51,352 nucleotides of DNA from Candidatus Methylomirabilota bacterium (GCA_046726415.1 JBKPAK010000085.1:1-51352), one strand, 5' to 3'. Numbered from the stretch's first letter, positions 1 to 50,092 are shown. A program made the numbers and translations. Notes: a model not told the origin generated them from the letters alone.

Positions 1-297
1 CTTGGAGGGCGACCTATGTCGGGCCTCCCCAAGCTCACGCGGAATCGAGGGGCGCCCCGGCTGCGCCGGGGGTCCCGAACGTTGGGGGGTTGGTGGGCGA
101 CCTATGTCGGGCCTCCCCAAGCTCACGTGGAATCGAGGGGCGCCCCGGCTGCGCTGGGGCGTCCCGAACGTTGGGGGGCTTGGGGGGCGACCCATGTCGG
201 GCCTCCCCAAGCTCACGCGGAATCGATGGGCGCCCCGGCTGCGCTGGGGCGTCCTGAGCGTTGGGGGGCTTGGGGGGCCTCGGTCGAGGCCCCCCAT
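1..297. repeat. Tandem array of three ~88-90 bp units ending in a GC-rich hairpin (repeat family A)
   Basis: ATGTCGGGCCTCCCCAAGCTCAC recurs at 16, 104 and 194. Terminal inverted repeat TGGGGGGCCTCG-gt-CGAGGCCCCCCA at 271-296. May continue beyond the window start. Confidence 0.92.
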
Positions 298-315
298 CTC
301 GATAGTCGGCCGAGG

Positions 316-1707
316 TTACACCTTCACGGTGAGGTACGAGGCCGTGCCCTCGCGCTGGATGAGGAGGAGCAGCGAGCTGCCCGCCTGCGTGGCGTCGAGC
401 GCCCGACGGAAATCGTCCACGCCCTTCACCGGCTGGCGATTGACTTCCACGATGATGTCGCCAGGGCGTAGCCCGGCCTCGTCGGCGGGGCTTCCGTCCC
501 TGACTTGCCGGACGATCAGACCGGAGGCGGCGATGCCGAGCTGACTCGCGATGTCAGGCGTGACGGGCTCGACAGAAACGCCGAGTCGCGCGCGCTGGCC
601 GGCTTCGTGCGGAGCCGCGGAGGCGAGGTTGACCGGCTGCTCGCGGCGGGCCACCTTGGCGGTGAGGGTCACGGGCTTCCCTTCCCGCAGGACCGAGACC
701 TTCACGTCTTTGCCAATCGGCGTGGCCGCCACCTGCAACGAGAGGTCGGTGGCGCGGCCGATCTTCCGACCGTCTAGCTCGACAATGACGTCGCCCTGTT
801 TCACGCCGGCGGCCGCCGCCGGGGAGCCATCCCAGACTTGAGAGACGACCACGCCGTCCGTCCGCGTGAGACCCAGGGCGGCAGCGAGGTCAGTCGTCAG
901 TGGCTGCGCGGTGACGCCGAGCCAGCCTCGCTCGACCTGTCCCTTCTCGGCGAGCTGGGGCACCACGAACTTGGCCAGGTGCACCGGCACCGCGAAGCCG
1001 ATGCCGATCGAGCCCCCGGTTCGGCTGAAGATGGCGCTGTTGATCCCGATCGCTTCGCCCTGGGCGTTGACCAGCGGTCCGCCGCTGTTGCCGGGATTGA
1101 TAGACGCGTCCGTCTGGATGAAATCGTCGTACGGTCCCTCGCTGATCACCCTACCGGTGGCGCTGACAATGCCCGTGGTGACGGTCAGCTCGAGGCCGAA
1201 GGGATTGCCGACGGCCATGACTGGCTCGCCGACCTTCAGGGTGCTGGAATCGCCGAGGGGGATGACGGGCAGATTCGTCGCGTCGATCTTCAGCAGGGCG
1301 AGGTCTGTCTGCTGATCGCGACCGACGACCTTCGCATCCAGTTCCCGCCCGTCGCTGAGACGGATTCGCGCGACCGCGACACCTTCGACCACGTGGTTGT
1401 TGGTCAGGATGTAGCCGTCGGCGCTGATGATGAAGCCGGACGCGCGGGGGCCCGGCACGCGGCCCATCGGGGGCAAGGGCCGGCCCGGGGCGGGGCGCCG
1501 CTCGGCCGCTACGTTGACGACAGCAGGCTTGACCGCTTCCGCAACGGCGACCCAGTCGGGCGTGGCGGGCGTGGCCGACGTGCGGGGACGCTCGGTCCAG
1601 TACTGACGCGTGGCGGCTTCCGCGAACGTCTGGAGGGAGAACAGGCCCAGCAGCACGCTGGCGACGAGGGGGATCGCGGCGCGCCGGGGCGGAGCGGAAA
1701 GTGACAT
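316..1707 (-). CDS. degP: Do/DegQ (HtrA) family periplasmic serine endoprotease with two PDZ domains
   Basis: Triad motifs TNNHV, TDLALL and GNSGGP. Two PDZ regions (GWLGV, RLGVSV). N-terminal signal peptide. ATG at 1707 preceded by AGGAGG, preferred over the ORF-track start at 1797. Confidence 0.92.
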   Translation of the reverse strand: MSLSAPPRRAAIPLVASVLLGLFSLQTFAEAATRQYWTERPRTSATPATPDWVAVAEAVKPAVVNVAAERRPAPGRPLPPMGRVPGPRASGFIISADGYILTNNHVVEGVAVARIRLSDGRELDAKVVGRDQQTDLALLKIDATNLPVIPLGDSSTLKVGEPVMAVGNPFGLELTVTTGIVSATGRVISEGPYDDFIQTDASINPGNSGGPLVNAQGEAIGINSAIFSRTGGSIGIGFAVPVHLAKFVVPQLAEKGQVERGWLGVTAQPLTTDLAAALGLTRTDGVVVSQVWDGSPAAAAGVKQGDVIVELDGRKIGRATDLSLQVAATPIGKDVKVSVLREGKPVTLTAKVARREQPVNLASAAPHEAGQRARLGVSVEPVTPDIASQLGIAASGLIVRQVRDGSPADEAGLRPGDIIVEVNRQPVKGVDDFRRALDATQAGSSLLLLIQREGTASYLTVKV

Positions 1708-1825
1708 TATGCAGCCTCCTTGTGGTGAGCGCTTCGTTGGATGTCTCCGACCGAGGCGGTCGCCATCACACGAAGCCGCCGCCGGCCTTGTCATCAAGGA
1801 CGAACGGGGGAAGCCTTCTATTCGG

Positions 1826-2150
1826 TTGGGGGGCCTCGACAGGGCCCCCCAAGCCCCCCAGCGCTCGGGGCGCCCCGGCGAAGCCGTGGCGCCCCTCGAT
1901 AGTGCGCGGCGCTTGGGAGGGCCGACGAAGCTGGGGCGTCCCTCGATACTGCGCGGCGCTTCGGAGGGCCGGCGAAGCCGTGGCGCTCGTCGATACCGTG
2001 CGGCGCTTGGGCGGGCAGACGAAGCTGGCGCCCGCCTCGATACTGCCCGCGCGCTTGGGCGGGCCGGCTAAGCTCGCGCGTCCCCCGATATTGCGCGGTG
2101 CTCGGGCGGGCCGACGACGCCGGGCGGCGGTCCCCGGTATTCCGGCGCGC
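1826..2150. repeat. Hairpin followed by six degenerate ~47-48 bp tandem units (family A, inverted relative to 1-297)
   Basis: TTGGGGGGCC...GGCCCCCCAA at 1826-1852. (T/C)CGATA recurs at about 1896, 1943, 1990, 2037 and 2085, with a decayed copy near 2133. Confidence 0.88.
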
Positions 2151-2161
2151 TCCGAATCTTG

Positions 2162-4771
2162 CTACCGGGCGAGGTAGCTGCTCAACTTGGCGCCATTCCG
2201 CGCGCGCAGGGTCACGGCGATGCGGAGCTGTTCGAGATACTGTTCCAGGGTTTTGCCGCCGAGGTCGATCTTCCGCTGAGTGAAGAACTCGTGGACGCTT
2301 CCCTCCAGCTCCGGTGTGGCCAGCGCGGTGACGCCCTCGGCCATGCGCCGGAGCCCCTGCTTCGGGTACTGGCGGTCCATGGTGTCCCAGTTGGCGCGGA
2401 CGAAGTCCCACGCCACCTCGCGGCCGTGAACGGTCATCAACATGGCCCGGACCACGAACGGCGCGTCCTGGGTGCGGATCTCGCCGTTGATCGTCTTGGC
2501 CAGGGTCTGCTCCACCAGCGGGCGGGGCTGGAAGGCCACCAGCGCATAGAGGTAGCGCTGCTCCTCCTGCGGCGTGGTGGCCGCGCGGAAGGCCCTGAAG
2601 AATGCGTCGTAGCGCGCCGCAAGGCCGACGTGGGCGAGGATCGCGATGAGGGCCGGCAAGACGTTGGGGTCCACCAGGCCACTGCCGTCGAGGTGCGCCG
2701 CATAGACCTCCTCCGCTCGCGCCTGTGTGGCCGGATCGTTGCCCAAGGTGCCGAGGGCGCGGATGAGATCGCCGCGGAGCTGGCGCCTCAGCTCGTCCTC
2801 GCCGGCGCGGGGTGTCCATCCCAGCTCCTCGACGGCGCCGGACAGGCGATCGCGGACGAGTCGCTCGAGCCCAGGGCGATCAGCGGAGAGGATGATCCGA
2901 TTGAGGGTGTGGAGCGAGCCCATGAGGATGACCCAGACATTCTTGTCGCGCTCGCCGCGGAACTCGGCGGTGAGGTCCAGGTACTCTTCGATTGGCGTGA
3001 GCCCGGCCACGGTGGCCGCCCACGCGTCGCCGAGCAGGTTGAAGCGCTCGATGGGAGCGAGGCCGGATGCTAGCCGCCGCAGAAGGCGCCCCAGCAGATC
3101 GTGGCTGTAGCGCACGCGATAGAAGCCGTGACCTCCTTCGTTGACTACGACGGCCTCGGCGTCCGCCGGAAGGGCAATCTTCGCCTCTCCCTCGGCGAGC
3201 AGCACCCGCCGCACCTCGGAGGGGCCTCGGCGCTCGACGCGGATCTGAAGGGGGATCTGCCACCGCTGATTGCGATCCACCGGCGGTGCCGACACCCGCC
3301 CGGGCACGCGGTCCAGCGGGTCGCGCAGGTAGGTGAAGCGCTGCTGCTCCAGGACCAGCTGACCATTGTCGAGACGGGCGCTGACGATGGGAAAGCCGGG
3401 GCGGAAAATCCAGCCGTCCATCAAGGCGGGGATGGGTTGTCCGGAGGCCCGCCCCAGGGCCGCCCACAGATCGCCGGTCTCCGCGTTGCCGTAGGCGTGC
3501 CTCCGCAGATATTCGCGCACGCCCTCTCGGAACACCTCGGGACCGAGGTACTGCTCGAGCATGCGCAGCACCGAGGCGCCCTTCTCGTAGGTCAGGACGT
3601 CGAACATCGCGTCGGCTTCTTGCGGGGCATTCACCGGGAATTCGATGGACCTCGTGCTGTGCAGGCCGTCGACGGCGAACGCCGCCGAGCGCGAGACTCC
3701 GAAGGTGGTCCAGCGCTGCCACTCGGGCTTCCAGGCGTCCACCGCCAGCATCTCCATGAAGGTGGCGAAGGCCTCGTTCAGCCAAATGCCGTTCCACCAC
3801 TCCATGGTCACCAGGTCGCCGAACCACATGTGGGCATTCTCGTGGGCCACCACGTCGGCCACCCGCTCGAGCTCGCTATGGGTGGCCGCGCCCGCGTCGA
3901 CGAGCAGCGCCGTTTCGCGGAAGGTGATGGCGCCGAGGTTCTCCATGGCGCCGGCCGCGAAGTCGGGAATGGCCAGGAGGTCCAGCTTGTCGCCCGGATA
4001 GGGATGCCCGTAGTACGTCTCGAAGAACGCCAGCGATGCCGCGCCGATGTCGCGCCCGAACGACGCCAACCGCCGCTTGCTCGGCACGCACCAAACGCGC
4101 AGGGGAGTGCGGCCCACCATCACCGGCTCGGTGGCTTCCAGCTCGCCGACGACGAAGGCCACGAGGTACGTCGACATGACGATGGTGTCGGCAAAGGCCA
4201 CGACCTTTCGACCACCCTCGATCCGCTCGGAGACGACGGCCGTGTTGGACACCGCGGTCAGCGCGGGATCGATCACCAACGTAGCGGCAAAGACCGCTTT
4301 GAACGCGGGCTCGTCCCAGCAGGGAAAGGCGCGCCGCGCGTCGGTGGCCTCGAACTGGGTGGCGGCCAGGGTATGCGTGGCGCCGCTCTCGTCCTTGTAG
4401 GTGCTGCGATAGAAGCCGCGCAGCTTGTCGTTGAGAGTCCCCCGGAAGGCGAGGCGCAAGCGCCAGGTCCCCGGGGTGAGCGCCTCGCCGAAGCGAAGGC
4501 AGCAGCGCTCGCGATCGGGCTCGAAGGTGGCCGTGCCCCGGCGCACGTGGCCATCGTCGCGCGAGATGGCGACCTCTGAGATCGTCAGCTCGGCCGCGTT
4601 GAGCCAGATCTCGGAGACCGGCTCCTTCACCGTGACCGTGACCGTTTCCTCGCCTTCGAAGACGAAGGTGGAGAAGTCGGGGATCAGGCGGAGGTCGTAG
4701 CGGCTGGGGGCGACGGTTCGCGGCAATCTGTAGGGATCCAGGGTTCTCTCCTCCGGCGCCGAGCGTTCCAT
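2162..4771 (-). CDS. pepN: M1 family zinc aminopeptidase (aminopeptidase N / ERAP1_C-type)
   Basis: GAMEN exopeptidase motif, HENAH...WLNE zinc motif, TQFEATDARRAFPCWDEP and YEKG. Start placed at ATG 4771 (alternative 4801). Confidence 0.93.
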   Translation of the reverse strand: MERSAPEERTLDPYRLPRTVAPSRYDLRLIPDFSTFVFEGEETVTVTVKEPVSEIWLNAAELTISEVAISRDDGHVRRGTATFEPDRERCCLRFGEALTPGTWRLRLAFRGTLNDKLRGFYRSTYKDESGATHTLAATQFEATDARRAFPCWDEPAFKAVFAATLVIDPALTAVSNTAVVSERIEGGRKVVAFADTIVMSTYLVAFVVGELEATEPVMVGRTPLRVWCVPSKRRLASFGRDIGAASLAFFETYYGHPYPGDKLDLLAIPDFAAGAMENLGAITFRETALLVDAGAATHSELERVADVVAHENAHMWFGDLVTMEWWNGIWLNEAFATFMEMLAVDAWKPEWQRWTTFGVSRSAAFAVDGLHSTRSIEFPVNAPQEADAMFDVLTYEKGASVLRMLEQYLGPEVFREGVREYLRRHAYGNAETGDLWAALGRASGQPIPALMDGWIFRPGFPIVSARLDNGQLVLEQQRFTYLRDPLDRVPGRVSAPPVDRNQRWQIPLQIRVERRGPSEVRRVLLAEGEAKIALPADAEAVVVNEGGHGFYRVRYSHDLLGRLLRRLASGLAPIERFNLLGDAWAATVAGLTPIEEYLDLTAEFRGERDKNVWVILMGSLHTLNRIILSADRPGLERLVRDRLSGAVEELGWTPRAGEDELRRQLRGDLIRALGTLGNDPATQARAEEVYAAHLDGSGLVDPNVLPALIAILAHVGLAARYDAFFRAFRAATTPQEEQRYLYALVAFQPRPLVEQTLAKTINGEIRTQDAPFVVRAMLMTVHGREVAWDFVRANWDTMDRQYPKQGLRRMAEGVTALATPELEGSVHEFFTQRKIDLGGKTLEQYLEQLRIAVTLRARNGAKLSSYLAR

Positions 4772-4776
4772 CAACT

Positions 4777-5688: not shown

Positions 5689-5765
5689 ACTCTACCGCGG
5701 CCGCTCGGTGGCCGGCCGCGTCTGCACGGGGTCATGCCCGCCCATCGTCCTGGTAAGGTGAGGAC

Positions 5766-6974: not shown

Positions 6975-6986
6975 TGGGGGTGCTCG

Positions 6987-8612: not shown

Positions 8613-8695
8613 GATAGCGTTCCTTCTCGGTCCGGACGCCGGGAACATCGCCCGCCGAGCGACGCGCTCGACATGGCGACCGACTCGGATAGCAT

Positions 8696-11536
8696 ATGAA
8701 CGGTCCCGAGGGCGTCATGAGCGGAGATTCGAGGGACATCGATACGGAGTGGTGGTACCCGGAGAAGAACACCCAGGAGCGCGGGCGCCTCCTCGCCCTG
8801 GGCGCGCCCTTCCGGCCCGGCCTGGACCTCCTGCCGCAGGTGCAAGAGGCGTGGGCGGTGGTGAAAGATCGCTGGGGACGTCCCGCCCACGGCGAGCCGC
8901 GCGAGGCGCTTCGCCGGGTCATTGCCCCGGTGCCGGCCATCGGTCCCAACGACGCGCTCGGATACGTCCTCTACGCAGGTCTGACCTACAACACGATGTT
9001 CGCCGCGCGCGGTGTGCCCATCTCCGTCTTCGATCTCCACGATTGGGATCTCCACATCCCCGGAAGCGGGGCCGTCGTCATGGTGGCCGCGCTCGGTGCC
9101 GAAGCCGCGCGCGAAGGCCGTCTGCGCGTCGGCGAGGTGCGGGTAGTCTACCCAGGCGTGTCCGATCTTCTGTCGCCGCGCGCCGGCGACGATCCCATGC
9201 ATGCGGACTTCAAGATCCAGGGCTACGAGACGCCGGACGGCACCTTCGCCCAGTTCGTCCGCTGCCAGGCGCCGGGACTGCTGAAGCACTCCGAGCGCCT
9301 CACGCTCCCCGCAGGTGCGTCGTTCATGCTCGATCTGGAGACGGTCTACAAGGCGCTCTACGACGTGGCCGGCGTTCAACCCGGCGAGCGCGTCTTCGTG
9401 GAAGGCGCGGCCGGCGGCACCGGACTCTACGCCGTCAGCTGTGCCGTCCTGCGCGGCGCGCTGGTCACCGGCCTCGTCTCCACCGAGGACAAGGGCGCGC
9501 TGATTCGCTCCCGCGGGGCGGCCGTCCATGTCAACCGCGCTCGTCCCGACCTGAAAGGTGTGTTTGCGATAGTGCCGTGCGACCTGCCGGGGCAGGCGGA
9601 ATGGCGCGCGGCCGGGGAGCGCTTCCTGGCCATGGTGCGCGAGGCGAACGAGGGATCGGCGATCGACGTGGTCGTCTCCTCGGTCGGGCGCGATCTCTTC
9701 GGCCGCATGATCGACCTGCTGGGTCCGGGCGGCCGGCTCGTGTTCTACGGCGCGACCAGTGGCTACAGCTTGGCGTTCCTGGGGAAGGAGGGAGCGATTT
9801 CCGCGCGTGAGATGCTCAGCCGCGCCGATCTCCGTCCCCACGAGGGTGTCGTCGTCTATTGCGGCACGTCGGACGCGGTGGGCGACGACGCGATCCAGGC
9901 GGCCCTGCGCGCGGGGGCCCGCGTGGTGGCCGTCGCGGGGAGCGATGGGGAAGCCGCGCGGCTTCAGGCGCGGTTCCCGCTCCTGCGCGGCGTGGTGAGC
10001 CTCGAGGCGCTGGCGCGCGGTCCGGGCTTTCGCTGGCCGGACACCATGCCGGACTACGACCTCGACGCCGCCGGCTACCGCGAGTACCAGGACCTCACCC
10101 TCAAGCCCTTCGGCCAGGCGATCGGTCGGCTCCTCGCGACGCCGGACAATCCACGGGGCAACCCCGACCTGATCGTCGAGCGCGCCGAGCAGGACACGCT
10201 CGGCGTGAGCGCCTTCATCGCGCGCCCGCACGGCGGCCGCGTGGTCTACCTGGACGGCGGCAAAGGGCGCCGCTTCTCGCTCTACGCGCCCAACATCTGG
10301 ATGCACCAGAAGCGCATCTTCTTCCCGACCTTCACCATTCTCGGCAGCCACCTCTCGAACGCGCACCAGGCGGCCGAGGTCGTGGAGCTCATCGATGCCG
10401 GCGCCCTCGGGGTGCACGCGCCCGTGGTCCATCCATGGGAGCAACTGGCCGAAGCCAACCAGGCCATCCACGAGAACCGCCACACCGGCACGCTTGCCGT
10501 TCGGGTCGGGGCCACCGACGCGCTCGACGGCGCGCGCTCCGCGCGGCAGGTGTACGAGGCGTGGGGTTCTCGCTTCATCGACACCGCCACGGTGCGAGTC
10601 CGGCTCGACCCGGTTCGGCGCGGGTTTCCAGATCTGGTTGCCCTCGTCACGATCGACTCGCCGCCCGCCAACGCCCTTGGACGAGGCACCCTGGAGGATC
10701 TCGAAACGGTTCTGGATCGGCTGGAGGCCGAGGGGGGCATGCGCGCGGCGGTGCTCACCGGAGCCGGATTGATGTTCGTGGCCGGCGCCGATATCCGCCA
10801 GCTTCGCGCCTTCGCCACGCCCGAGGATGTCGAGGCCTTCGCGGCGCGGGCCCAGCGGCTCTTCGCGCGGATCGCCGCGTCGCCGGCGCCGTTCGTCTCC
10901 GCCGTCGATGGCTATGCCCTCGGGGGCGGCAACGAGCTCCAGATGGCCTGCGCGTACCGCGTGGCGTCGGCGCGCGCGGAGATCGGCCAGCCAGAGATCA
11001 ATCTGCACGTGATTCCGGGATTCGGCGGGACGCAGATGCTCCCGCGCCTGGTCATCCGCCAGGCGCGGACCGGCGGCGCGCAAATGTACACGCTGCTCGC
11101 GCACGCGCTGACCATGCTGCTCGACGGACGCCGCCGTACTGCAGGCGAGGCCCGCGCGCTCGGGCTCGTCGACGAGGTGGCGGCGGCCGACGCGCTTTCC
11201 CGGGCGCTCGAGATCGCGGGAAGGATTGCCCGCGGCGAATTCACCGGGGCGCTGTGGTCGCCGCTGGCTCAGCGCGACACCATCGCCTTCCCCAACGCCG
11301 AGCGCGACGCCAACATCCAGCGGGTTCTCGCGCATCACGCGGCGATCCCTCGGGCGGCGGCGGCGCGCGCCATCGCGGACGTCGTGCGCCTGGGGCTGAC
11401 GAAGGGGTTGGCGATCGGACTGGCCCAAGAGGCGCGTCTCTTCGGCCAGCTCGTCGCATCCGAGGACGGGCGGGCGGGCATCGATCGCTTTCTCGGGCGA
11501 CGCTCGCTGCCGCTTCCCCTGCGTCCCCGGGGGTAA
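8696..11536 (+). CDS. Fusion of an N-terminal MDR-family enoyl-CoA reductase (propionyl-CoA-synthase/Ccr-like) and a C-terminal enoyl-CoA hydratase
   Basis: Reductase part: YAGLTYNT, HIPGSG, IQGYETPDGTFAQF, EGAAGGTG, WMHQKRI, GSHLSN. Crotonase part from about aa 630: PPANAL, FVAGADI, ALGGGNELQMAC, IGQPEINL, IPGFGGTQ. Start may be ATG 8717. Confidence 0.88.
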   Translation: MNGPEGVMSGDSRDIDTEWWYPEKNTQERGRLLALGAPFRPGLDLLPQVQEAWAVVKDRWGRPAHGEPREALRRVIAPVPAIGPNDALGYVLYAGLTYNTMFAARGVPISVFDLHDWDLHIPGSGAVVMVAALGAEAAREGRLRVGEVRVVYPGVSDLLSPRAGDDPMHADFKIQGYETPDGTFAQFVRCQAPGLLKHSERLTLPAGASFMLDLETVYKALYDVAGVQPGERVFVEGAAGGTGLYAVSCAVLRGALVTGLVSTEDKGALIRSRGAAVHVNRARPDLKGVFAIVPCDLPGQAEWRAAGERFLAMVREANEGSAIDVVVSSVGRDLFGRMIDLLGPGGRLVFYGATSGYSLAFLGKEGAISAREMLSRADLRPHEGVVVYCGTSDAVGDDAIQAALRAGARVVAVAGSDGEAARLQARFPLLRGVVSLEALARGPGFRWPDTMPDYDLDAAGYREYQDLTLKPFGQAIGRLLATPDNPRGNPDLIVERAEQDTLGVSAFIARPHGGRVVYLDGGKGRRFSLYAPNIWMHQKRIFFPTFTILGSHLSNAHQAAEVVELIDAGALGVHAPVVHPWEQLAEANQAIHENRHTGTLAVRVGATDALDGARSARQVYEAWGSRFIDTATVRVRLDPVRRGFPDLVALVTIDSPPANALGRGTLEDLETVLDRLEAEGGMRAAVLTGAGLMFVAGADIRQLRAFATPEDVEAFAARAQRLFARIAASPAPFVSAVDGYALGGGNELQMACAYRVASARAEIGQPEINLHVIPGFGGTQMLPRLVIRQARTGGAQMYTLLAHALTMLLDGRRRTAGEARALGLVDEVAAADALSRALEIAGRIARGEFTGALWSPLAQRDTIAFPNAERDANIQRVLAHHAAIPRAAAARAIADVVRLGLTKGLAIGLAQEARLFGQLVASEDGRAGIDRFLGRRSLPLPLRPRG

Positions 11537-11553
11537 CAGGCTAGACTGTTGAG

Positions 11554-11731
11554 TTGGAGGGGGCGCGACGCCCCCTCCAAACCTCCCCATTTGCGCGGGG
11601 TGAGACACCGTATTGGCGAGGGGCGCGACACCCCATTTGCGCGGGGTGAGACACGGTATTAGCGAGGGGCGCGACACCCCTGCTGGCGATTAGCGCGGGG
11701 CGAGACACCCTACTGACGTGGGGCGGCGACA
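11554..11731. repeat. 12-bp-stem hairpin followed by six ~23 bp units arranged as 46 bp dimers (repeat family B)
   Basis: TTGGAGGGGGCG-cga-CGCCCCCTCCAA at 11554-11580. CCCCATTTGCGCGGGGTGAGACA at 11585 and 11631 alternates with C(C/G)GTATT(G/A)GCGAGGGGCGCGACA. Confidence 0.88.
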
Positions 11732-37806: not shown

Positions 37807-39192
<1,386 letters not shown>

Positions 39193-39199
<7 letters not shown>

Positions 39200-40933: not shown

Positions 40934-42174
40934 CGCGCGTCAAGACCCAGGAGCCCATCGTCGGATTGGACGTGGGTACCACCAAGATTTGCTGCGTGAT
41001 CGCGGAGCCCGATTTCGACGGCGATCTCGAGGTGATCGGGCTCGGCGCGGCCCCCTCGCGCGGGCTGCGCAAGGGCGTCGTAGTCAACATCGACTCCACC
41101 GTCGAGGCCATCAAGACGGCCGTCACCCAGGCGGAGGAAAGGGCCGGGGTCGAGGTGGCGCGCGTCTACGTGGGCGTGGCGGGCGGCCACACCCGGGGCG
41201 TCAACAGCCGCGGCGTGGTGGCCATCTCCGGCAAGCATCACGAGGTGGATGAGACCGACGTGCAGCGGGCGGTGGACGCCGCGCGCGCCATCAACCTGCC
41301 CCAGGACCGCGAGATCATCCACGTCCTCCCCCAGACCTTCGTCGTGGACGACCAGGACTGCGTGCGGGAACCAATCGGCATGACCGGGGTGCGCCTGGAG
41401 GTCGAGGTGCACATCGTGTCGGGCGCCAGCACGTCCGTGCAGAACGTGATCCGCTCCGTGAACCGAGCGGGTCTGGCCGTGCACGACCTGGTGTTGCAGC
41501 CGCTCGCCTCCGCGGAGGCGGTGCTGTTCGAGGACGAGCGCGAGCTGGGAGTGGTGATCGTCGACATCGGCGGCGGCACGACGGACCTGGCCCTGGTGCG
41601 GGAGGGGGCGGTGTGGCACACGGCCATCCTGCCGCTGGGCGGTGATCACATCACCAACGACGTGGCCATCGGCCTGCGCACGCCCGTGGCCGACGCCGAG
41701 ATGCTGAAAAAGAACCACGGCGCCGCGCTCGCCGCCCAGGTGTCGGCGGACGAGACGGTGGACGTCCCGTCGGTCGGCGGCCGCAAGCCGCGACAGCTCT
41801 CGCGGCAGGTGCTGGCCGGGATCATCCAGCCGCGAGTCGAGGAGATCTTTGCCTTGGTGGCGAAGAGCCTCAGCCGGGCTGGCTTCGAGGGCGCGGCCAC
41901 CGCGGGCGTGGTGGTCACGGGAGGCACGTCGATCATGGAAGGCCTTCCCGAGCTGGCCGAGCGCGTGCTGGGCCAGCCGGTGCGCCGCGGGGCACCGTCG
42001 GTCGTCGACGGTCTCGTGGAGACGGTGACGAGCCCCATCTACGCCACCGGCGTAGGCCTCGCGCTCTACGGCGCCAAGCGGCGCCCGGTCAGCAGCATCG
42101 CCACCGACGGCGAGCGGGGACTTCTCGGCCGCCTGCGGCGCAGGTTCGCAACGGCCCTCGGCGAAATGCTGTGA
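40930..42174 (+). CDS. ftsA: Cell division protein FtsA
   Basis: VGLDVGTTKI, GLRKGVVVNI, DIGGGTTD, VVTGG and YATGVGL. Probable ATA start at 40930 after GGAGGA. Confidence 0.96.
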   Translation: MARVKTQEPIVGLDVGTTKICCVIAEPDFDGDLEVIGLGAAPSRGLRKGVVVNIDSTVEAIKTAVTQAEERAGVEVARVYVGVAGGHTRGVNSRGVVAISGKHHEVDETDVQRAVDAARAINLPQDREIIHVLPQTFVVDDQDCVREPIGMTGVRLEVEVHIVSGASTSVQNVIRSVNRAGLAVHDLVLQPLASAEAVLFEDERELGVVIVDIGGGTTDLALVREGAVWHTAILPLGGDHITNDVAIGLRTPVADAEMLKKNHGAALAAQVSADETVDVPSVGGRKPRQLSRQVLAGIIQPRVEEIFALVAKSLSRAGFEGAATAGVVVTGGTSIMEGLPELAERVLGQPVRRGAPSVVDGLVETVTSPIYATGVGLALYGAKRRPVSSIATDGERGLLGRLRRRFATALGEML

Positions 42175-42240
42175 TGGCATGACCGCCAGTTCCAGCGACC
42201 GTCGGCAGAGCCCTGGCGTAGGTCCGCAGGTCCGGGAAGC

Positions 42241-42665
42241 GCACGTCACACCCCGCGCAAACGGGGCGTCTGGGGCGGCAGGTACGTGTTGGGCCTGCGG
42301 CTAGATCGTAGTGCACGTCACACCGCGCGCAAGCAGGGAGGCGTGGGGCGGGGGGTTCGTGGGGGCCGCTGCGGCTAGGTGGTAGCGCATGTCGCACCCC
42401 GCGCAACCGGGGAGGCTTGGAGCGGGGGGTCCGTGGGGGACCCTGCCGCTATGTAGTAGCGGGTGTCACAGCCCGCGTGAGCGGGGCGGCTTGGAGCGGG
42501 GGGTCCGTGGGGGACCCTGCCGCTATGTAGTAGTGGGTGTCACAGCCCGCGTGAGCGGGGCGGCTTGGAGCGGGGGGTCCGTGGGGGACCCTGCCGCTAT
42601 GTAGTAGCGGGTGTCACACCCCGCGTGAGCGGGGAGGCTTGGAGGGGGCGTCTCGCCCCCTCCAA
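42241..42665. repeat. Six ~72-74 bp tandem units ending in a 12-bp-stem hairpin (family B, inverted relative to 11554-11731)
   Basis: GTC(A/G)CA recurs at 42245, 42317, 42391, 42465, 42539 and 42613. TTGGAGCGGGGGGTCCGTGGGGGACCCTGCCGCTATGTAGTAG is identical at 42417, 42491 and 42565. Hairpin TTGGAGGGGGCG-tct-CGCCCCCTCCAA at 42639-42665. Confidence 0.92.
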
Positions 42666-42680
42666 TTAGGAGGAGGGACG

Positions 42681-43844
42681 ATGGAGAAGGAGCGTGGGCG
42701 GCGGCCGCTCTTCGAGATCGAGGAGACTCCGCAAGCGGCGAAGATCAAAGTGGTCGGTCTCGGCGGCGGCGGCGGCAACGCCATCAGTCGCATGCTGGAG
42801 GCCCAGTTCACGGGTGTCGACTTCATCGTCGCCAATACCGACAGCCAGGCTCTGCGCGCGTCACCGGCCCCGGTGAAGATCCAGCTCGGGGCCAACCTCA
42901 CCAAAGGCCTCGGCGCCGGCGCCGATCCTGACATTGGCCGTCAGGCGGCCCAGGAAAACATGGAACAGATCGCCCGGCTTCTCGAGGGCGCGGACATGGT
43001 CTTCATCACCGCGGGCCTCGGGGGAGGGACGGGCACGGGCTCGGCTCCGGTGGTGGCATCCCTGACCAAGGAAATGGGGATCCTGACGGTGGCGGTCGTC
43101 ACCAAACCGTTCCATTTCGAGGGGCGCCGCCGCATGCTGCAGGCGGAGGCGGGTATGGAAGCGCTCCGCGGCGTCGTCGACACGCTGATCAGCATTCCCA
43201 ACCAGCGACTCCTGTCCGTGGTCGATCGGGGCACCCCGCTCATGGCCGCCTTCCGGGTGGCCGATGCCGTGCTGCAGCAGGCGGTGCAAGGCATCTCCGA
43301 TCTCATCCTGGTGCCGGGCCTCATCAACCTGGACTTTGCCGACGTGCGGACGATCATGTCGGGGATGGGCATGGCCATGATGGGCACCGGCGTCGGCCGC
43401 GGGGAAGATCGCGCGCTCGATGCGGCGCAGAAGGCCATCGCCAGTCCACTGCTGGACGACACGTCGATCGAGGGGGCCAAGGGGATTCTCATCAACTTCA
43501 CGGGCGGGCCGGACTTGTCCATCCACGAGGTGGAAGAGGCCGCCCGCATCGTCCAGGAAGCGGCGCACGACGAGGCCAACATCATCTTCGGTGCCGTCAT
43601 CGATCCAAACCTCGCGGACGAGGTGCGGATGACGGTCATCGCCACCGGCTTCAGCGAGAAGCGCGAGCTGCTCATGCCCGGCGGCAAGGTCGTCGATCTG
43701 CCTCCGCGCGCGGGGGGCCGCATGACGCCGCCCGCGCCGGGGGCATGGCGCCGGCGCGCGGCCGAGCCGCGCATGGATGGGGACGAGTCGATGGATGGCG
43801 ACGATCTCGACGTTCCCGCGTTTCTGCGGCGTCAGGCGGACTGA
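42681..43844 (+). CDS. ftsZ: Cell division protein FtsZ
   Basis: [24 protein letters not shown] and C-terminal [24 protein letters not shown]. Confidence 0.98.
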
Positions 43845-43901
43845 GCAACGGCTCGGGGGAGCTTTCCTGGCTCCCCCGACGTCTTCGCGGCGGGTCGTGA
43901 C

Positions 43902-44639: not shown

Positions 44640-44654
44640 GCCAGCCATCTCGGG

Positions 44655-44683
44655 TTGGCCACTTCGCGGCCATGGTCTAAAAT
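44655..44683 (+). promoter_or_regulatory. Putative internal sigma70 promoter for yggS-proC-yggT-divIVA
   Basis: TTGGCC-N17-TAAAAT, 9 nt before GTG 44693. Confidence 0.6.
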
Positions 44684-44692
44684 TCACCAACT

Positions 44693-46212: not shown

Positions 46213-46511
46213 TGTTCGTCCTCGGCAATCTCCTGGAGGCGCTGGCCGCGGTGCTTCATCTCGTGCTGAACATCTACATCTGGATCCTCGTGGCGCGCGC
46301 GATCATCTCGTGGGTGAACCCCGACCCCTACAATCCCATCGTGCGCTTCCTCTATCGCGTCACCGAGCCGGTGCTGCGCCCGGTGCGCAACATGCTGCCC
46401 CTTCAGGGGATCGGCCTCGATCTCTCGCCGATGATCGTGCTACTGGTCATCTACGTGCTCGACAGATTCCTGGTGAGTTCACTGATCGACCTCGCCTCGA
46501 GCCTCCGGTAG
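46212..46511 (+). CDS. yggT: YggT family membrane protein
   Basis: ISWVNPDPYNP, VTEPVLRP and LDLSPMI. Confidence 0.93.
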   Translation: MFVLGNLLEALAAVLHLVLNIYIWILVARAIISWVNPDPYNPIVRFLYRVTEPVLRPVRNMLPLQGIGLDLSPMIVLLVIYVLDRFLVSSLIDLASSLR

Positions 46512-46527
46512 GCGAGAAGGGCAGGCC

Positions 46528-47004
46528 ATGCGCGTCACTCCGACCGACATCAGGCAGCAGAGCTTCACCGTGCGGCTGTTCCGCGGGTTCGACCTCCAAG
46601 AGGTCGACGCCTTCCTGGAGGACGTGGCGGAGGATTTGGAGTTCGCCATCAAGGAGAACACGACCCTCCGGGAGCAGCTGGCGGCCATGGAGGAGCGGAT
46701 GCGGGCCGTCGGCGAGCGCGAGAAGATCCTCCAGGAGACCTTGGTCACCACCCAGCGTTTGACCGAAGAGATGAAGGAGGCGGCCAAGCGCGAAGCCGGT
46801 CTCCACGTGCGAGAGGCGGAGCTCCAGGGCGAGAAGATCATGGAGTCAGCGCGCAGCGAAGAGGCGCGCATCCTCAACGACGTGCAGATGCTCAAGCGGA
46901 CCCGGCGACAGCTCGTGGAGGAAATCCGCTCCACCCTGGAGACCTATCAGCGCTGGCTCTCCGAGTTCAGCGGAGAGTCGGGCGACGCCACCCCCAAGCC
47001 GTGA
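46528..47004 (+). CDS. divIVA: DivIVA domain protein
   Basis: MRVTPTDIRQQSF..FRGFDLQEVDAFLE followed by a coiled coil. Confidence 0.92.
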   Translation: MRVTPTDIRQQSFTVRLFRGFDLQEVDAFLEDVAEDLEFAIKENTTLREQLAAMEERMRAVGEREKILQETLVTTQRLTEEMKEAAKREAGLHVREAELQGEKIMESARSEEARILNDVQMLKRTRRQLVEEIRSTLETYQRWLSEFSGESGDATPKP

Positions 47005-47017
47005 CGCCGGCGGCACC

Positions 47018-47302
47018 GTGCGACTGCGCGTGCAACCCAGCGCCTCGCGCGATGCCATCGTGGGTTGGCAGGCCGGAGCCTTGCGGGTGCGCGTCTCGGC
47101 GCCGCCGGTGGAGGGCGAAGCCAACCGAGCGGTCATCGCGTTGCTAGCCCGGACCTTGGGGATCCGGCCCCGAGCCGTGCGCGTCGTCCACGGCGACCGC
47201 GCTCGCGACAAGCTGGTGCGGATCGACGGGCTGAGCCAGACGGTCATCGAGGCCCGGCTCGGGCGCGCGGACGACCGTGGCATCGAGAACGTTGAGCCGT
47301 GA
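47018..47302 (+). CDS. yggU: DUF167 (YggU) family protein
   Basis: RVQPSASR, VRVSAPPVEGEAN and GDRARDK; start uncertain. Confidence 0.88.
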   Translation: MRLRVQPSASRDAIVGWQAGALRVRVSAPPVEGEANRAVIALLARTLGIRPRAVRVVHGDRARDKLVRIDGLSQTVIEARLGRADDRGIENVEP

Positions 47303-48315
47303 TCACGCCCGTCCGCTGGGATGGCCATCGCCTGATCCTCCTCGACCAGACCAAGCTCCCCGAGGCCGAGGTCGAGCAGGGGTACACGCGGTGGGAGGAC
47401 GTGGCGGAGGCCATCCGCACCTTGGTCGTGCGAGGCGCGCCGGCCATCGGGGTGGTGGCGGCCTTCGGCGTGGCGCTGGCCGCGCGGCAGAGTGCGGCCC
47501 GGACCTTCGACCAGCTGCTGGCCGATCTCGAGGCGGCCATGACCGGGTTGGCCGCCACGCGGCCCACCGCGGTGAATCTGTTCTGGGCCCTCGACCGCAT
47601 GCGGGAAGTGACCCTCGCCTCCCGGCCGCTGCCCCTCGACACGATCCGCCAGCGGCTCTTGGCCGAGGCGGAGACCATCCGCGAGGAGGACATTCGCGCC
47701 AACCGAGCTCTGGGCGACCACGGGACGTCGCTGGTGCCCGCGGGCGCGCGCATTCTCACCCACTGCAACGCCGGCGCGCTGGCCACGGCCGGGTACGGCA
47801 CGGCGCTCGGCATCGTCCGCGCGGCCCATGCCCAGGGTAAGGTGAAGCTGGTCTGGGTGGACGAGACGCGCCCGGTGATGCAGGGCTCGCGGCTGACCGC
47901 CTGGGAGTGCGTGCGCGACGGGATCCCGCACCGACTGATCGCCGACGTGGCGGCGGCCTCGGTGATGGCGCGCGGCGAGGTCGATCTCGTGGTGACCGGC
48001 GCCGACCGCATCGCCGCCAACGGAGACACCGCGAACAAGATCGGCACCTATATGTTGGCCGTGCTGGCCGGCCACCATGGCGTGCCGTTCTACGTGGCGG
48101 CGCCCTTCTCGACCATCGATGCGGCACTGGCGTCGGGAGCGGCCATCCCCATCGAGGAGCGGGGGGCGGCGGAGGTGCGGTCGGTGGCCGGCCGGGCGAC
48201 GGCCCCGACCGACTCCCCCGTGTACAACCCGGCCTTCGACGTCACCCCGGCCACCCTCATCACCGCCATCGTCACCGAGCGCGGCGTGTTCCGCCCGCCC
48301 TACCACTTCCGCTGA
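47299..48315 (+). CDS. mtnA: S-methyl-5-thioribose-1-phosphate isomerase
   Basis: VRGAPAIG, RPTAVNL, THCNAGALAT, ETRP, GADRIAANGDTANKIGTY and NPAFDVTP. Confidence 0.96.
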   Translation: MITPVRWDGHRLILLDQTKLPEAEVEQGYTRWEDVAEAIRTLVVRGAPAIGVVAAFGVALAARQSAARTFDQLLADLEAAMTGLAATRPTAVNLFWALDRMREVTLASRPLPLDTIRQRLLAEAETIREEDIRANRALGDHGTSLVPAGARILTHCNAGALATAGYGTALGIVRAAHAQGKVKLVWVDETRPVMQGSRLTAWECVRDGIPHRLIADVAAASVMARGEVDLVVTGADRIAANGDTANKIGTYMLAVLAGHHGVPFYVAAPFSTIDAALASGAAIPIEERGAAEVRSVAGRATAPTDSPVYNPAFDVTPATLITAIVTERGVFRPPYHFR

Positions 48316-48385
48316 CGCTTCGAAGCGGGGCGATCATCTCTTCGGGTGACCGGCGCGCGACCTGCCCCCGGTACAATCAGTCCCC

Positions 48386-49894
48386 GTGGCCATGAACGAT
48401 CGGGTTCGCCTCGCCCGCGAGTTCCACGACCGCACCGCGCACTCGCGCGCCTCGGTCCATACCAGCGGCCACGCGCTCGACTGGGACATCAAGCCGTTCC
48501 CGTTCAAGGTCTACGCGGAGCTCCCCGCGATCCCGCTACCCCGCGCCCTGGATCCACTGTCCGCCGACACCCTGGAGGCGCTCGGCGGCGCCTCGCCGCC
48601 ACCCGGCGCCCCCCTCACCCTCGATGCCGTGGCCGCGATGCTCTACTTCGCCGCCGGGGTGACCAAGAAGAAGACGTATCCCGGTGGGGGAGAAGTGCTC
48701 TTCCGCGCCGCGGCCTCCACCGGCGCCCTCTTCCAGACCGAGGTGTACCTGGCGGCGGGGGACGTGGAGGGATTGGCCCCGGGTCTCTATCACTTCTGTC
48801 CGGGCGACTTCGCGCTGCGGCGACTCCGCGACGGAGACGTGCGCGCGGCGCTGGCCGCCGCCGGCGCCGACGAATCGCTGGCGCGGCGCGCCGCCACCCT
48901 GATCCTCTCCGCCATCTACTGGCGCAACACGTGGAAGTACCAGGCGCGCGGCTACCGCCATCTCTTCTGGGACTCGGGCACGATGCTCGCGAATCTTCTG
49001 GCCACCGCCGCCGCCCTCGGCGCCGCCCCACAACTGTTCACCGGGTTTGTGGACGATGACGTGAATCGCCTCCTGGGGCTCGACGTCGCCCGCGAGGCGG
49101 CCCTCGAGCTGGTGGCCCTCGGTCCCGAAGGCGGCCCGGCCGCGCCCTCGCCCACGCCCGCGGAACCCCTCGACCATCCGGTCATGCCGCTCTCGTCGAG
49201 CGAAGTCGACTATCCCGCCCTCCGCGAGATCCACCGCGCGTCCTTCCTCGAAACGCCCGCCGCGGTTCGAGACTGGCGCCGGGCGGCACCACCGCCACCC
49301 CGAGTTCCGCGCGGAGCGCTGGAGCTGCTGCCCCCGCCCCGCCGCGCGGTGGAGCGAACCCTCGGCGACACCATCCAGCATCGCGGCTCGACCCGGGAGT
49401 TCGGCCACGAGGCGATCAGCGCCCTCGAGCTGTCCACGGTGCTCTGGTCGGCGACGCGGCCGGTCGACGCCGATGTGCCCGCCGGGCTGGTCGATCTCTA
49501 CCTGATCGTCAATGCGGTGGACGGTGTCGGGTCCGGCGCATACCGGTACTGGCCCGAGGCGAACGCCCTCGAGCGCCTGTCGGCCGGTGAGTATCGCCGA
49601 CAGTCAGCGTATCTCACCCTCGAGCAGCCACTTGGCGGAGACGCCGCGGCGGTGATCTACTTCATGGCTCCGCTCGATGGCCTCCTCGAGGCGTTCGGGA
49701 ACCGCGGATACCGACTCGCCAACTTGGAGGCCGGCATCATCGGCGGCCGCGCTTATCTGGCCGCCTATGGGCAGCGCTTCGGCGCCAGCGGGCTGACCTT
49801 CTACGATGGCGACGTGGTGCGCTTCTTCTCCCCGCACGCCGCCGGGCTCGACGCCATCTTCGTCACCGCGCTCGGCCGCTCTGCGCGCCGATAG
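48386..49894 (+). CDS. SagB/ThcOx-family FMN oxidoreductase with two nitroreductase-like domains
   Basis: RAAASTGALF, WKYQARGYRHLFWDSG; second domain HRGSTREF...RGYRLANLEAG...GLTFYD. Confidence 0.88.
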   Translation: MAMNDRVRLAREFHDRTAHSRASVHTSGHALDWDIKPFPFKVYAELPAIPLPRALDPLSADTLEALGGASPPPGAPLTLDAVAAMLYFAAGVTKKKTYPGGGEVLFRAAASTGALFQTEVYLAAGDVEGLAPGLYHFCPGDFALRRLRDGDVRAALAAAGADESLARRAATLILSAIYWRNTWKYQARGYRHLFWDSGTMLANLLATAAALGAAPQLFTGFVDDDVNRLLGLDVAREAALELVALGPEGGPAAPSPTPAEPLDHPVMPLSSSEVDYPALREIHRASFLETPAAVRDWRRAAPPPPRVPRGALELLPPPRRAVERTLGDTIQHRGSTREFGHEAISALELSTVLWSATRPVDADVPAGLVDLYLIVNAVDGVGSGAYRYWPEANALERLSAGEYRRQSAYLTLEQPLGGDAAAVIYFMAPLDGLLEAFGNRGYRLANLEAGIIGGRAYLAAYGQRFGASGLTFYDGDVVRFFSPHAAGLDAIFVTALGRSARR

Positions 49895-49896
49895 AC

Positions 49897-50092
49897 GTTG
49901 GGGGGAGCGAGCGCCGCTCCCCCCAACACCCCCCATCGCCTATTTGGCGACGGCGAGGGGAGCGTTCGCTCCTGCCTCGCCTCATCAACTGCTCGTCGGC
50001 GGCCGGGGACGGCCCCCCATCGCCTATTTGGCGACGGCGAGGGGAGCGTTCGCTCCTGCCTCGCCTCATCAACTGCTCGTCGGCGGCCGGGG
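49897..50092. repeat. 13-bp-stem hairpin followed by two identical 80 bp direct repeats
   Basis: GTTGGGGGGAGCG-agcgc-CGCTCCCCCCAAC at 49897-49927; repeat copies at 49929-50008 and 50013-50092. Confidence 0.92.

Follow-up and report, generated by a model that had tools for sequence, protein, structure and literature searches.

MIRUs, described by Supply et al. (1997), are presented in the available part of a later review as GC-rich units of 40–100 bp that contain inverted repeats and occur in tens of copies (PMC3184786). The same part of that review places them in the spacers of co-transcribed genes, with ends that overlap the adjacent genes and with filled and empty sites between relatives. 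Furthermore, it describes tetranucleotide direct repeats flanking the filled sites and head-to-tail arrays of variable unit number (PMC3184786).

REP sequences, BIMEs and REPINs, with their RAYT transposases, form the second system for comparison, as covered in the available parts of PMC3337134, PMC3116915 and PMC3733652. The accessible portion of PMC3733652 describes REP palindromes that carry an unpaired tag, GTAG or CGTC, on one side and records CGTC-tagged REPs that lack a dedicated transposase. Section 6 of that source gives inverted dimers as the prevailing form of REP cluster and describes dimers in head-to-tail arrangement as negligible.

The DNA analysed here, the window, is a stretch of 51,352 nucleotides from a Rokubacteria/Methylomirabilota-type soil bacterium (genome G000; 98% complete, 352 contigs). 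Its five tandem arrays are local clusters of three related families of small, non-coding, hairpin-bearing dispersed repeats, F1, F2 and F3, which together add a new member to a well-known class of bacterial repeats. A search of the literature on repeats, palindromes and hairpins in Rokubacteria/Methylomirabilota found no report of them. They are probably MIRU/REP-like non-autonomous repeats of gene junctions that expand locally by slippage at their own hairpin arms.

As in the MIRU account cited in part above, F1–F3 are GC-rich, contain internal inverted repeats and number tens of copies; their units (46–110 bp) lie in gene spacers with filled and empty sites (12 compared sites) and form head-to-tail arrays of variable unit number. 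They differ from MIRUs in phylum, in sequence and in having a distinct conserved hairpin head. Like REPs, they consist of an unpaired tag followed by a GC-rich palindrome, are high-copy and extragenic, favour convergent and co-directional spacers and are sometimes clustered. However, the F1 and F2 tags are TGAG and TTGAG rather than GTAG, and no RAYT was found in G000 or its two congeners. Measured against the REP features given in the sources available in part, the stems are 11–13 bp G/C runs instead of 8–9 bp stems starting with A/T pairs, the units are longer and two-domain, and the clusters are strictly head-to-tail. Most F3 copies carry CGTC before the stem, but F3 stems are unlike the CGTC families described in the available part of PMC3733652.

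Five hairpin-headed arrays in the window

The first-pass annotation of the window had reported five intergenic arrays with G-run/C-run hairpins. Tandem Repeats Finder (TRF) and sequence reading found all five where it had placed them, and called genes border every array, none of which lies inside a gene. It had also recognised two sequence families occurring twice each, correctly: arrays 1 and 2 belong to F1 and arrays 3 and 4 to F2, array 5 representing the third family, F3. The features are as follows.

1–269 (−): array 1, head-to-tail F1 units, cut by the contig start (TRF 1–278, 90 bp ×3.1, 93% matches)
270–305 (−): F1 head of array 1, hairpin 270–297 plus 5′ tag, minus-strand CTATCGAG
316–1707 (−): HtrA/DegP-like protease gene (Pfam Trypsin_2 and PDZ)
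1826–1852 (+): F1 hairpin, head of array 2 (motif match and fold)
1853–2161 (+): array 2, remainder of the leading F1 unit followed by some five sub-units of 47 bp (TRF 1868–2126, 47 bp ×5.5, 75% matches)
11549–11580 (+): F2 head of array 3, tag TTGAG plus hairpin 11554–11580
11581–11731 (+): array 3, F2 body repeated (46 bp ×2.1), then degenerate copies (TRF 11585–11680, alternatively 23 bp ×3.9)
40966–43844 (+): ftsA (40966–42174; Pfam FtsA) and ftsZ (42681–43844; Pfam Tubulin and FtsZ_C), flanking array 4
42238–42638 (−): array 4, between ftsA and ftsZ, 74-bp units of F2 body plus a private variant hairpin (TRF 42238–42652, 74 bp ×5.6, 86% matches)
42639–42665 (−): canonical F2 hairpin of array 4 (motif match and fold)
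49890–49926 (+): F3 head of array 5, tag plus hairpin 49898–49926
49929–50092 (+): array 5, F3 second domain (C-run to G-run), exact duplicate (TRF over the same interval, 84 bp ×2.0, 100% matches)

The strict motif TTGGRGGG..CCCYCCAA occurs four times in the window against 0.01 expected, and none of 100 shuffles of the window reached four. TTGG..CCAA does bound four of the hairpins, while that of the first array ends in CCAT, as had been described; it does not serve as a family signature, since most F1 copies begin with ATGG and most F3 copies with GTCGG. All five hairpins are predicted to fold into stems of 11–13 bp, with energies between −24.7 and −29.3 kcal/mol and z-scores between −3.2 and −5.9; the array 1 hairpin has −26 kcal/mol (z −4.7).

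Array 1 contains three minus-strand F1 units at 36–297 (nhmmer), the internal ones with hybrid first hairpins on sequence reading, and its head lies 18 nt past the stop codon of the HtrA-like gene (316–318). In array 2 the sub-unit consists of the second hairpin and a linker, and the array ends 12 nt from the stop codon of a minus-strand M1 peptidase gene. Arrays 1 and 2 bracket the HtrA-like gene, with the hairpin ends of both pointing inward. The head of array 3 lies 18 nt past the stop codon of the upstream gene, which ends at 11536, and the array ends 19 nt ahead of the next start codon (11750). The canonical hairpin of array 4 is 15 nt upstream of the ftsZ start codon, immediately ahead of the ftsZ ribosome-binding site; apart from their terminal part, the units of this array match nothing elsewhere in the genome. 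In array 5 the F3 tag contains the TAG stop codon (49892–49894) of the upstream nitroreductase-family gene. Contig ends coincide with several arrays, array 1 among them.

The description of three six-unit arrays stands for the two that reach about six units, and applies to the third only if degenerate 23-bp half-units are counted. Arrays 1, 3 and 4 clearly show the reported decay of unit identity with distance from the hairpin; array 2 does not.

Three dispersed families at gene ends

Genome-wide nhmmer searches located 175 loci in G000 (F1, 126; F2, 27; F3, 22), 143 of them single-copy and 32 multi-unit. This supports the earlier view of the hairpins as a dispersed REP/BIME-like element, as opposed to five independent terminators, and the repeats fill a visible share of gene junctions in a large uncultured soil phylum. 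Units measure about 80–105 bp in F1, 50–60 bp in F2 and 110 bp in F3. All three families share a head in which a short unpaired TGA (or TAG/TAA) tag leads into the G-run/C-run hairpin and then a second C-run, whatever the direction of the neighbouring gene. The tag reads TGAG in F1 and TTGAG(T) in F2, and in most F3 copies CGTC stands directly ahead of the stem; an ATG follows the tag. With the second C-run begins a further hairpin domain, which is specific to each family.

The head is sharply conserved, and conservation declines toward the tail. F1 was detected in 21, F2 in 9 and F3 in 17 of the 24 other genomes of the taxonomic family. Outside the genus, only a 44-nt F3 head is held in common, and the same head is joined to different bodies in other genera; core identity across genera is 85–95%. 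In the second F1 hairpin, compensatory changes occupy 102 cells in 12 of 15 pairs, a score as high being found in none of 500 shuffles (nhmmer match columns, hand-set structure). Judged from these changes, the structure of this hairpin is maintained. A MAFFT alignment of 80 F1 copies, in which the G/C runs are shifted out of register, consequently yielded no more than a slipped stem of 4 pairs with RNAalifold.

The elements lie tightly against gene ends. In 41 of 60 cases the upstream stop codon on the same strand is found at a distance of −1 to 5 nt, with reading-frame counts of 28:8:5 (P = 1e-5). F1 copies occupy 26 convergent but only 3 divergent spacers (P = 1.5e-5). MIRU-like repeats overlap the stop and start codons of their neighbours and contain a reading frame. 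On the stop side the placement here resembles the gene overlap of MIRUs as given in the part of the review available, and two genes are truncated and supplied with a stop; on the start side the likeness extends only to about 10 of 26 copies.

The families could be kept mainly as RNA or DNA signals at operon junctions, where hairpins would end or stabilise transcripts, the stop and ATG would keep translation coupled, and arrays would tune the effect. Several features agree with this: the in-frame copies flush with stop codons, the ATG after the tag, the compensatory changes in the second hairpin and the cross-genus identity of the core. Furthermore, 11 of 35 antisense F1 copies end in a motif whose complement reads as a stop, GAG and ATG, the ATG frame closes less than about 15 nt from the next start in 10 of the 26 sense copies between co-directional genes, and the ATG of the element is apparently the start of one downstream gene. 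However, copies between co-directional genes show no orientation preference (26 sense, 37 antisense), and the coupling geometry occurs in a minority only. Close relatives also have empty sites without visible consequence, and Rfam at gathering thresholds gave zero matches across the whole window. A primarily signalling role is considered unlikely, and a translation-coupling frame was rejected as a general rule, its geometry being present in about 10 of 26 copies only. MIRUs are known in a single orientation, whereas F1–F3 occur in both; the coupling frame is confined to a minority of F1–F3, and no consistent flanking direct repeats were seen at the diverged sites compared.

Comparison of orthologous spacers with two congeners, G001 and G002, as the first-pass annotation had proposed, revealed insertion polymorphism at 12 sites and varied unit numbers. 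On this comparison of sequences the elements are insertions: the congener sites are empty, hold another family at the same place or contain nested copies, such as an F2 copy within an F1 copy in G001. Arrays 1, 2, 3 and 5 are absent from G001, where the whole array 2 insert is missing. The ftsA–ftsZ spacer measures 14–35 nt in two other genera, and contains F1 in G001, one F2 in G002 and 5.6 F2 units in G000; the single G002 copy occupies the same place as the canonical hairpin of array 4. Relative to G001 and G002 alike, two genes of G000 lack 12 and 4 codons, precisely at the insertion, the 12-codon case being the nitroreductase-family gene before array 5. In such cases the insertion takes the place of the final codons and provides the stop. 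This displacement of stop codons and gene ends by the repeats has consequences for gene calling and comparative analysis.

Across the 12 filled or empty sites, no consistent terminal inverted repeat or target-site duplication was seen; the spacers, at 75–88% identity, are too diverged for the flanking direct repeats to be read. The two ends of the element resemble each other weakly, in a subset only. With neither feature definable, and no mobilising gene found, the filled and empty sites are the only basis for the term mobile element.

Orthologous arrays differ in unit number and content, and the repeats are usable as strain markers. An origin of the arrays in assembly errors of a fragmented metagenome bin is extremely improbable. 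The genome is indeed in 352 contigs, several arrays, array 1 included, sit at contig ends, and short-read contigs do not span exact repeats; the arrays themselves break assemblies in this way. However, repeat collapse or duplication errors could not produce diverged units, and similar arrays, some of them at orthologous sites and some elsewhere, are present in a congener assembled in 20 contigs. Both ends of array 4 are present on independent soil metagenome contigs, and contigs from runs of at least three studies reproduce its distal units and the hairpin–ftsZ junction. Its near-identical middle units are collapsed in short-read contigs, and their number is provisional.

Candidate agents of dispersal

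The first-pass annotation had invoked a REP/BIME-like element whose hairpin would drive polar amplification, possibly through a trans-acting HUH nuclease (RAYT). On such a REP/REPIN model, a Y1 HUH transposase acting in trans would both cut the hairpin and drive the amplification. The tag and GC-rich palindrome, high copy number, extragenic location and rarity in divergent spacers do recall tagged REPs as described in the available part of PMC3733652, as does the CGTC ahead of most F3 stems. PF01797, the family of the Y1 enzyme, has zero matches in G000, G001 and G002, all of which carry dozens of repeat copies; across the taxonomic family, 1 of 14 repeat-rich genomes and 3 of 11 repeat-poor ones contain it. 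The organisation is not REPIN-like either: inverted REP dimers number 0 in 32 multi-unit loci. Among 16 locus pairs 0.2–4 kb apart, inverted pairs are separated by more than 1 kb, and the seven genes bracketed by six of the pairs, HtrA included, are all ordinary enzymes or regulators. Additionally, PF02486 has no match in G000 and PF07282 none in G000–G002. The RAYT account is very improbable here, and for Y1 enzymes close to refuted. A widespread tagged-palindrome family without RAYT bears on how CGTC REPs and MIRUs spread.

IS91 rolling-circle elements and their gene-less derivatives resemble F1–F3 in having one conserved and one variable end and in stacking head-to-tail. The head might accordingly be the fixed, origin-like end of a gene-less rolling-circle mini-element (IS91-type, Y2 HUH), whose one-ended copying would give variable tails and, with each copy recreating the next target, head-to-tail stacks. 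The sharp head and variable tail, the different bodies on the same head in other genera, the exclusively head-to-tail arrays and the F2 copy nested in F1 in G001 fit this, and PF04986 (Y2_Tnp, IS91-type) genes are present in G000, G001 and G002. Neither a physical nor a phyletic link between Y2 and the repeats was found: six regions read around Y2 genes contain no F1–F3 match bar one F3 head about 1 kb away, and Y2 genes occur in 9 of the 14 repeat-rich and 7 of the 11 repeat-poor genomes, unrelated to F1 abundance. Together with units that are private to a locus and near-identical to their neighbours, as local duplication would leave them, these results make the Y2 origin quite doubtful. A MITE was also rejected: besides the weak, partial resemblance of the ends and the undefined target-site duplication, 0 of 37 long-repeat regions, searched as parent elements, has a family copy within 250 bp.

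Under the preferred reading of a MIRU/REP-like repeat, the elements, which insert against gene ends with a stop codon at, or in frame with, the tag, would spread through a trans-acting agent other than a RAYT. More tentatively, the conserved head could be the recognition end of an undescribed, RAYT-free Rokubacteria mobilisation system that targets stop codons, brings along signals for stop and restart by which operons would survive the insertion, and copies in one direction alone, away from the head. Copying of this kind would account for the interchangeable bodies as well as for the one-sidedness of the arrays.

Probable one-sided growth of the arrays

The association of hairpins with arrays extends across the genome, as had been anticipated: 51 of the 175 loci have a tandem array directly beside them, whereas random intergenic points gave a mean of 5.3 (maximum 11), and 45 of 80 intergenic arrays with a period of at least 38 bp belong to F1–F3. 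The proposal that the hairpin alone drives amplification fared less well, for family hairpins abut arrays in 41 of 114 cases and non-family G-run/C-run hairpins in just 4 of 101. As 143 loci are single copies, amplification is an occasional after-effect and not the element's mode of existence.

Every array is head-to-tail, with mixed strands in 0 of 32 multi-unit loci. The polarity noted in the window recurs: the complete or best unit lies at the hairpin end in 28 of the 32 (P about 2e-7; 25 of 29 without ties), a score that is partly due to later units lacking the first hairpin. Unit-to-unit identity decays away from the hairpin in five of eight arrays tested. Unit boundaries fall within the hairpin arms or at the second C-run. 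Each array has units of its own, almost identical to the adjacent ones, as local duplication would leave them, and degenerate units at the edges.

This anatomy suggests that, after insertion, arrays of the MIRU/REP-like repeat would grow through ordinary slippage during replication, or through unequal exchange, involving direct repeats within the element itself: the two C-runs, and the G-rich left arm together with its second occurrence at the 3′ end. Duplication of the second domain, or of hybrid units, on the 3′ side would leave the sole canonical hairpin at the 5′ end. VNTR minisatellites, attributed to slipped-strand mispairing, have the same varying unit number, near-identical neighbours and degenerate edge units. 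However, the seed here is a dispersed element of 175 loci and growth is one-sided from the hairpin head, which makes these loci a natural case of one-sided minisatellite growth beside a defined hairpin. The genome as a whole abounds in unrelated short tandem duplications, 184 of 235 arrays lying outside the families, and some of the arraying may reflect a general tendency of the lineage.

Window arrays and their hairpin families

All five intergenic arrays reported in the first-pass annotation were recovered by Tandem Repeats Finder, and direct reading of the sequence showed that each terminates on one side in a G-run/C-run palindrome (5/5). The hairpin–array feature is real.

Arrays in the window, with repeat period and terminal hairpin
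Array 1: 1-297; period 90 bp; hairpin 270-297
Array 2: 1826-2150; period 47 bp; hairpin 1826-1852
Array 3: 11554-11731; period 46 (or 23) bp; hairpin 11554-11580
Array 4: 42241-42665; period 74 bp; hairpin 42639-42665
Array 5: 49897-50092; period 84 bp; hairpin 49898-49926

The hairpins fold into stems of 11–13 bp, with energies of -24.7 to -29.3 kcal/mol and z-scores of -3.2 to -5.9. Matches to the strict pattern TTGGRGGG..CCCYCCAA number 4 in the window, where shuffling predicts 0.01, and 28, in 27 places, across the 7.6 Mb genome. A search of the window against Rfam gave no family match. From codon-usage gene calls and Pfam identities, all five arrays lie between ordinary genes: an HtrA-like protease and an M1 peptidase, an enoyl-CoA hydratase/dehydrogenase fusion and a cupin, ftsA and ftsZ, and a nitroreductase-family gene and a class-V aminotransferase.

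Searching the five array regions against the whole genome by blastn returned hundreds of matches elsewhere, from which three families, F1–F3, were delimited by iterated nhmmer. Copies are single in 143 of 175 loci and form two to five units in the other 32, none of which mixes strands (0/32).

Families F1–F3 in the source genome and, by BLAST match, in 24 other genomes of its taxonomic family and 13 of a sister family
F1: arrays 1 and 2; 152 hits; 126 loci, 106 single-copy; same family 21/24 (20/23 without the unpublished genome G011); sister family 5/13
F2: arrays 3 and 4; 44 hits; 27 loci, 18 single-copy; same family 9/24 (8/23 without G011); sister family 2/13
F3: array 5; 25 hits; 22 loci, 19 single-copy; same family 17/24 (16/23 without G011); sister family 1/13

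Identity across genera is 85–95% in the F1 core. Beyond the genus, F3 copies have only a 44-nt head in common and their bodies differ. Tandem copies are also present in a congener assembled in 20 contigs.

The TTGG..CCAA bounds proposed as a signature were not borne out by alignment, as most F1 copies begin with ATGG and most F3 copies with GTCGG. The families instead have a common head, comprising a short unpaired tag, the G-run/C-run hairpin and, a few bases on, a second C-run. The last bases of the tag are TGA and one to three more (F1, TGAG; F2, TTGAG; F3, TGA-N-CGTC), and it is present whether the neighbouring gene points toward or away, so it is part of the element. Predicted folds pair the second C-run with G-rich sequence at the 3′ end, with a second hairpin enclosed between them, making the unit a two-domain structure. 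Conservation in F1 begins abruptly at the tag, remains high over ~80 bp and then fades. A further ~18 heads with all three features fall outside the F1–F3 models.

The second F1 hairpin contains 102 compensatory cells at 12 of its 15 pairs, compared with a mean of 36.7 and a maximum of 51 in shuffles, although related copies inflate these counts. The first hairpin is almost invariant. Together, these patterns argue that F1 structure is important, whether to spread or to the host.

Insertion at gene ends

Orthologous intergenic regions were compared with congeners G001 and G002 at 12 sites, and with three other genera at the ftsA–ftsZ site; both empty sites and differing arrays were seen. The F1–F3 elements are insertions. 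G001 lacks arrays 1, 2, 3 and 5; at the array 2 site its flanks can be recognised, without the 336-bp insert between them. In G015 and G024 the ftsA–ftsZ spacer is 14 and 35 nt long, respectively; in G001 it holds a sense F1 beginning on the ftsA stop codon, in G002 a single antisense F2 whose hairpin adjoins the ftsZ ribosome-binding site, and in the source genome 5.6 F2 units. At array 5 and at C263:9192, both congeners have a longer gene, by 12 and 4 codons respectively; the source-genome gene breaks off exactly at the element start, and the tag provides the stop codon. At C24:28736, the tag TGA lies at the codon where G001 has TAG. No target duplication or terminal inverted repeats could be defined at the sites compared.

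At three sites, the element is common to the genomes compared and the array differs. The first has one unit in one genome and one unit plus an extra second domain in another, and the second has 3.4 versus 2 units of lineage-specific content. At the third (L032, G001:C7:41430-41720), an F2 head and body on the reverse strand at ~105-245 are nested in an F1 copy, between its first and second hairpins; the source-genome orthologue lacks this F2, so the families insert into each other. The HtrA-like gene (316-1707) sits between two inverted F1 arrays (36-297 and 1826-1906) with their hairpin ends inward, and as G001 has neither insertion, the bracket reflects two separate events in the source lineage. 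In G002, the end of the M1 peptidase gene (L016, G002:C11:51300-51800, ~300-360) is followed by a ~32-bp tandem copy of the gene's last codons and stop-codon region, with no hairpin element present.

Hairpin-bearing F1 copies, sorted by both flanking genes
Between co-directional genes, element sense: 26 copies
Between co-directional genes, element antisense: 37 copies
Between convergent genes: 26 copies
Between divergent genes: 3 copies

Convergent placements exceed divergent ones (binomial P = 1.5e-5), while divergent spacers are about as numerous in the genome as convergent spacers, and longer. In 41 of 60 cases, the stop codon of the same-strand upstream gene lies -1 to 5 nt from the element's first base. 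These distances peak at 1 nt (n=11), where the stop is the tag's own TGA, and at 4 nt (n=17), where the native stop is followed by an in-frame tag TGA; the reading frames divide 28:8:5 (P = 1e-5). Antisense copies place the hairpin 3–30 nt ahead of the next start codon, adjoining the ribosome-binding site, and in 11 of 35 the far F1 end stops at the upstream gene's stop codon, in complement.

The head bears a stop codon and an ATG, and a subset of copies has a similar motif on the other strand. At one locus (L027, 12700-12900; G000:C24:39225-39392 in the source genome), the gene downstream of two F1 units lacks its own ATG, GTG or TTG ahead of the conserved N-terminus and is in frame with the second unit's ATG. 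The same frame is continuous through both units in the G001 counterpart. This gene seems to start at the element's ATG. These features hint at an element built to be harmless within operons; against this design, copies occur commonly in either orientation, and only ~10 of 26 show the coupling geometry.

Origin and growth of the arrays

The proposed association of hairpin elements with arrays holds genome-wide: 51 of 175 family loci abut an array, whereas random intergenic points average 5.3 and reach at most 11 (300 draws). Among the 235 arrays of the genome with a period of at least 20 bp and a TRF score of at least 100, 51 overlap F1–F3, as do 45 of the 80 intergenic arrays with a period of at least 38 bp. 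The hairpin itself had been cast as the driver of amplification. G-run/C-run hairpins number 312 in the genome versus 107 in reversed sequence, and family hairpins do adjoin arrays (41/114), but other G-run/C-run hairpins rarely do (4/101; P = 2e-9), so a hairpin alone is not enough.

The suggested polarity stands for the architecture and is less clear for decay. The unit nearest the family model is the 5′, hairpin-end unit in 28 of 32 multi-unit loci (14.1 expected, P = 2e-7), a score that partly reflects the usual lack of the first hairpin in later units. The proportion is 25/29 once three ties are dropped, and in three of the four exceptions a contig start truncates the array. Unit-to-unit identity declines away from the hairpin in five of eight arrays (arrays 1, 3, 4 and two others; not array 2 or two further), which is not significant.

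Neighbouring units are up to 96–100% identical, and array 4 units have a private hairpin variant without a match elsewhere in the genome. Local duplication therefore fits better than repeated insertion as the origin of the arrays, which are young and local. The distal diverged units of array 4 and its hairpin–ftsZ junction recur in soil metagenome contigs from runs of at least three studies, of which the run with the best coverage may be the source sample itself. The near-identical middle units collapse to short, deeper contigs, as expected with short reads.

Unit boundaries fall within hairpin arms or at the second C-run. In array 5, the repeated part is exactly the second domain, from C-run to terminal G-run. 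Array 1 repeats whole units with hybrid first hairpins, in which the 3′ G-rich end is combined with the normal right arm. Arrays 3 and 4 and the C263 array break inside a hairpin arm. The element thus has short direct repeats of its own around hairpins of great stability, an arrangement on which slipped-strand mispairing or unequal exchange classically acts. Either process, acting between these repeats, could generate new units, which would be gained on the 3′ side, with a single canonical hairpin remaining at the 5′ end. As this would yield the observed architecture, the trans-acting nuclease invoked as amplifier is not needed.

Unrelated short duplications are abundant in the source genome; a high overall rate of duplication is therefore a probable contributor to arraying. 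Its tandem-repeat periods show a broad peak at 29–37 bp (mode 33 bp), which includes 113 of the 235 arrays with periods of at least 20 bp (e.g. C119:644-708, C313:34348-34636 and C189:52085-52359). These units are unrelated in sequence and mostly located between genes or across gene ends, with overlap with the hairpin families in only 3 cases; the peak resembles a length ruler governing short duplications of this lineage. Fifteen intergenic arrays with periods of 60–69 bp (e.g. C103:7311-7692, C293:27785-28024 and C30:20804-20980) represent further dispersed families, none matching F1–F3.

Mobilisation and related repeats

The Y1/RAYT HUH nuclease (PF01797) put forward as mobiliser has no match in the source genome (98% complete), G001 or G002. 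Within the taxonomic family, PF01797 is found in 1 of 14 F1-rich versus 3 of 11 F1-poor genomes. PF07282 was absent from the source genome and both congeners, and PF02486 from the source genome. IS91-type Y2 transposases (PF04986) are found in all three, and as genes or fragments in 15 of 24 genomes of the taxonomic family.

Y2 (PF04986) genes or fragments in the source genome
C69:7818-8102
C298:267-937
C296:3562-3645

Y2 presence is independent of F1 abundance (9/14 F1-rich versus 7/11 F1-poor genomes), and six regions around Y2 genes contain no F1–F3 copies except one F3 head ~1 kb off. None of 37 long-repeat regions considered as parents has a family copy within 250 bp. Genes enclosed by two family copies are ordinary. 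One of them, C175:18759-19268, lies between inverted F1 copies and encodes an ANTAR-domain response regulator. ANTAR-domain regulators bind paired RNA hairpins; its position here is probably coincidence. The sharp head, variable tail and interchangeable bodies of the elements would suit spread by one-ended copying from the head, the boldest reading of these data.

Literature searches turned up no account of repeats of this type for the phylum. The REP/BIME-like label of the first-pass annotation applies in so far as F1–F3 are dispersed, tagged, extragenic palindromes, but the defining features of REPIN/RAYT systems were looked for and not found. The nearest described repeats are tagged REPs with BIME clusters, and MIRUs. 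For the tagged REPs (PMC3733652), the likeness lies in the tag plus palindrome and the extragenic bias, and the CGTC class is likewise described without a dedicated transposase. F1–F3 are compared with MIRUs, with no claim to membership in MIRU proper: against the MIRUs of the review PMC3184786, the two agree in size, in junction position and, on the stop-codon side, in gene-overlapping ends, and in variable head-to-tail arrays with filled and empty sites.
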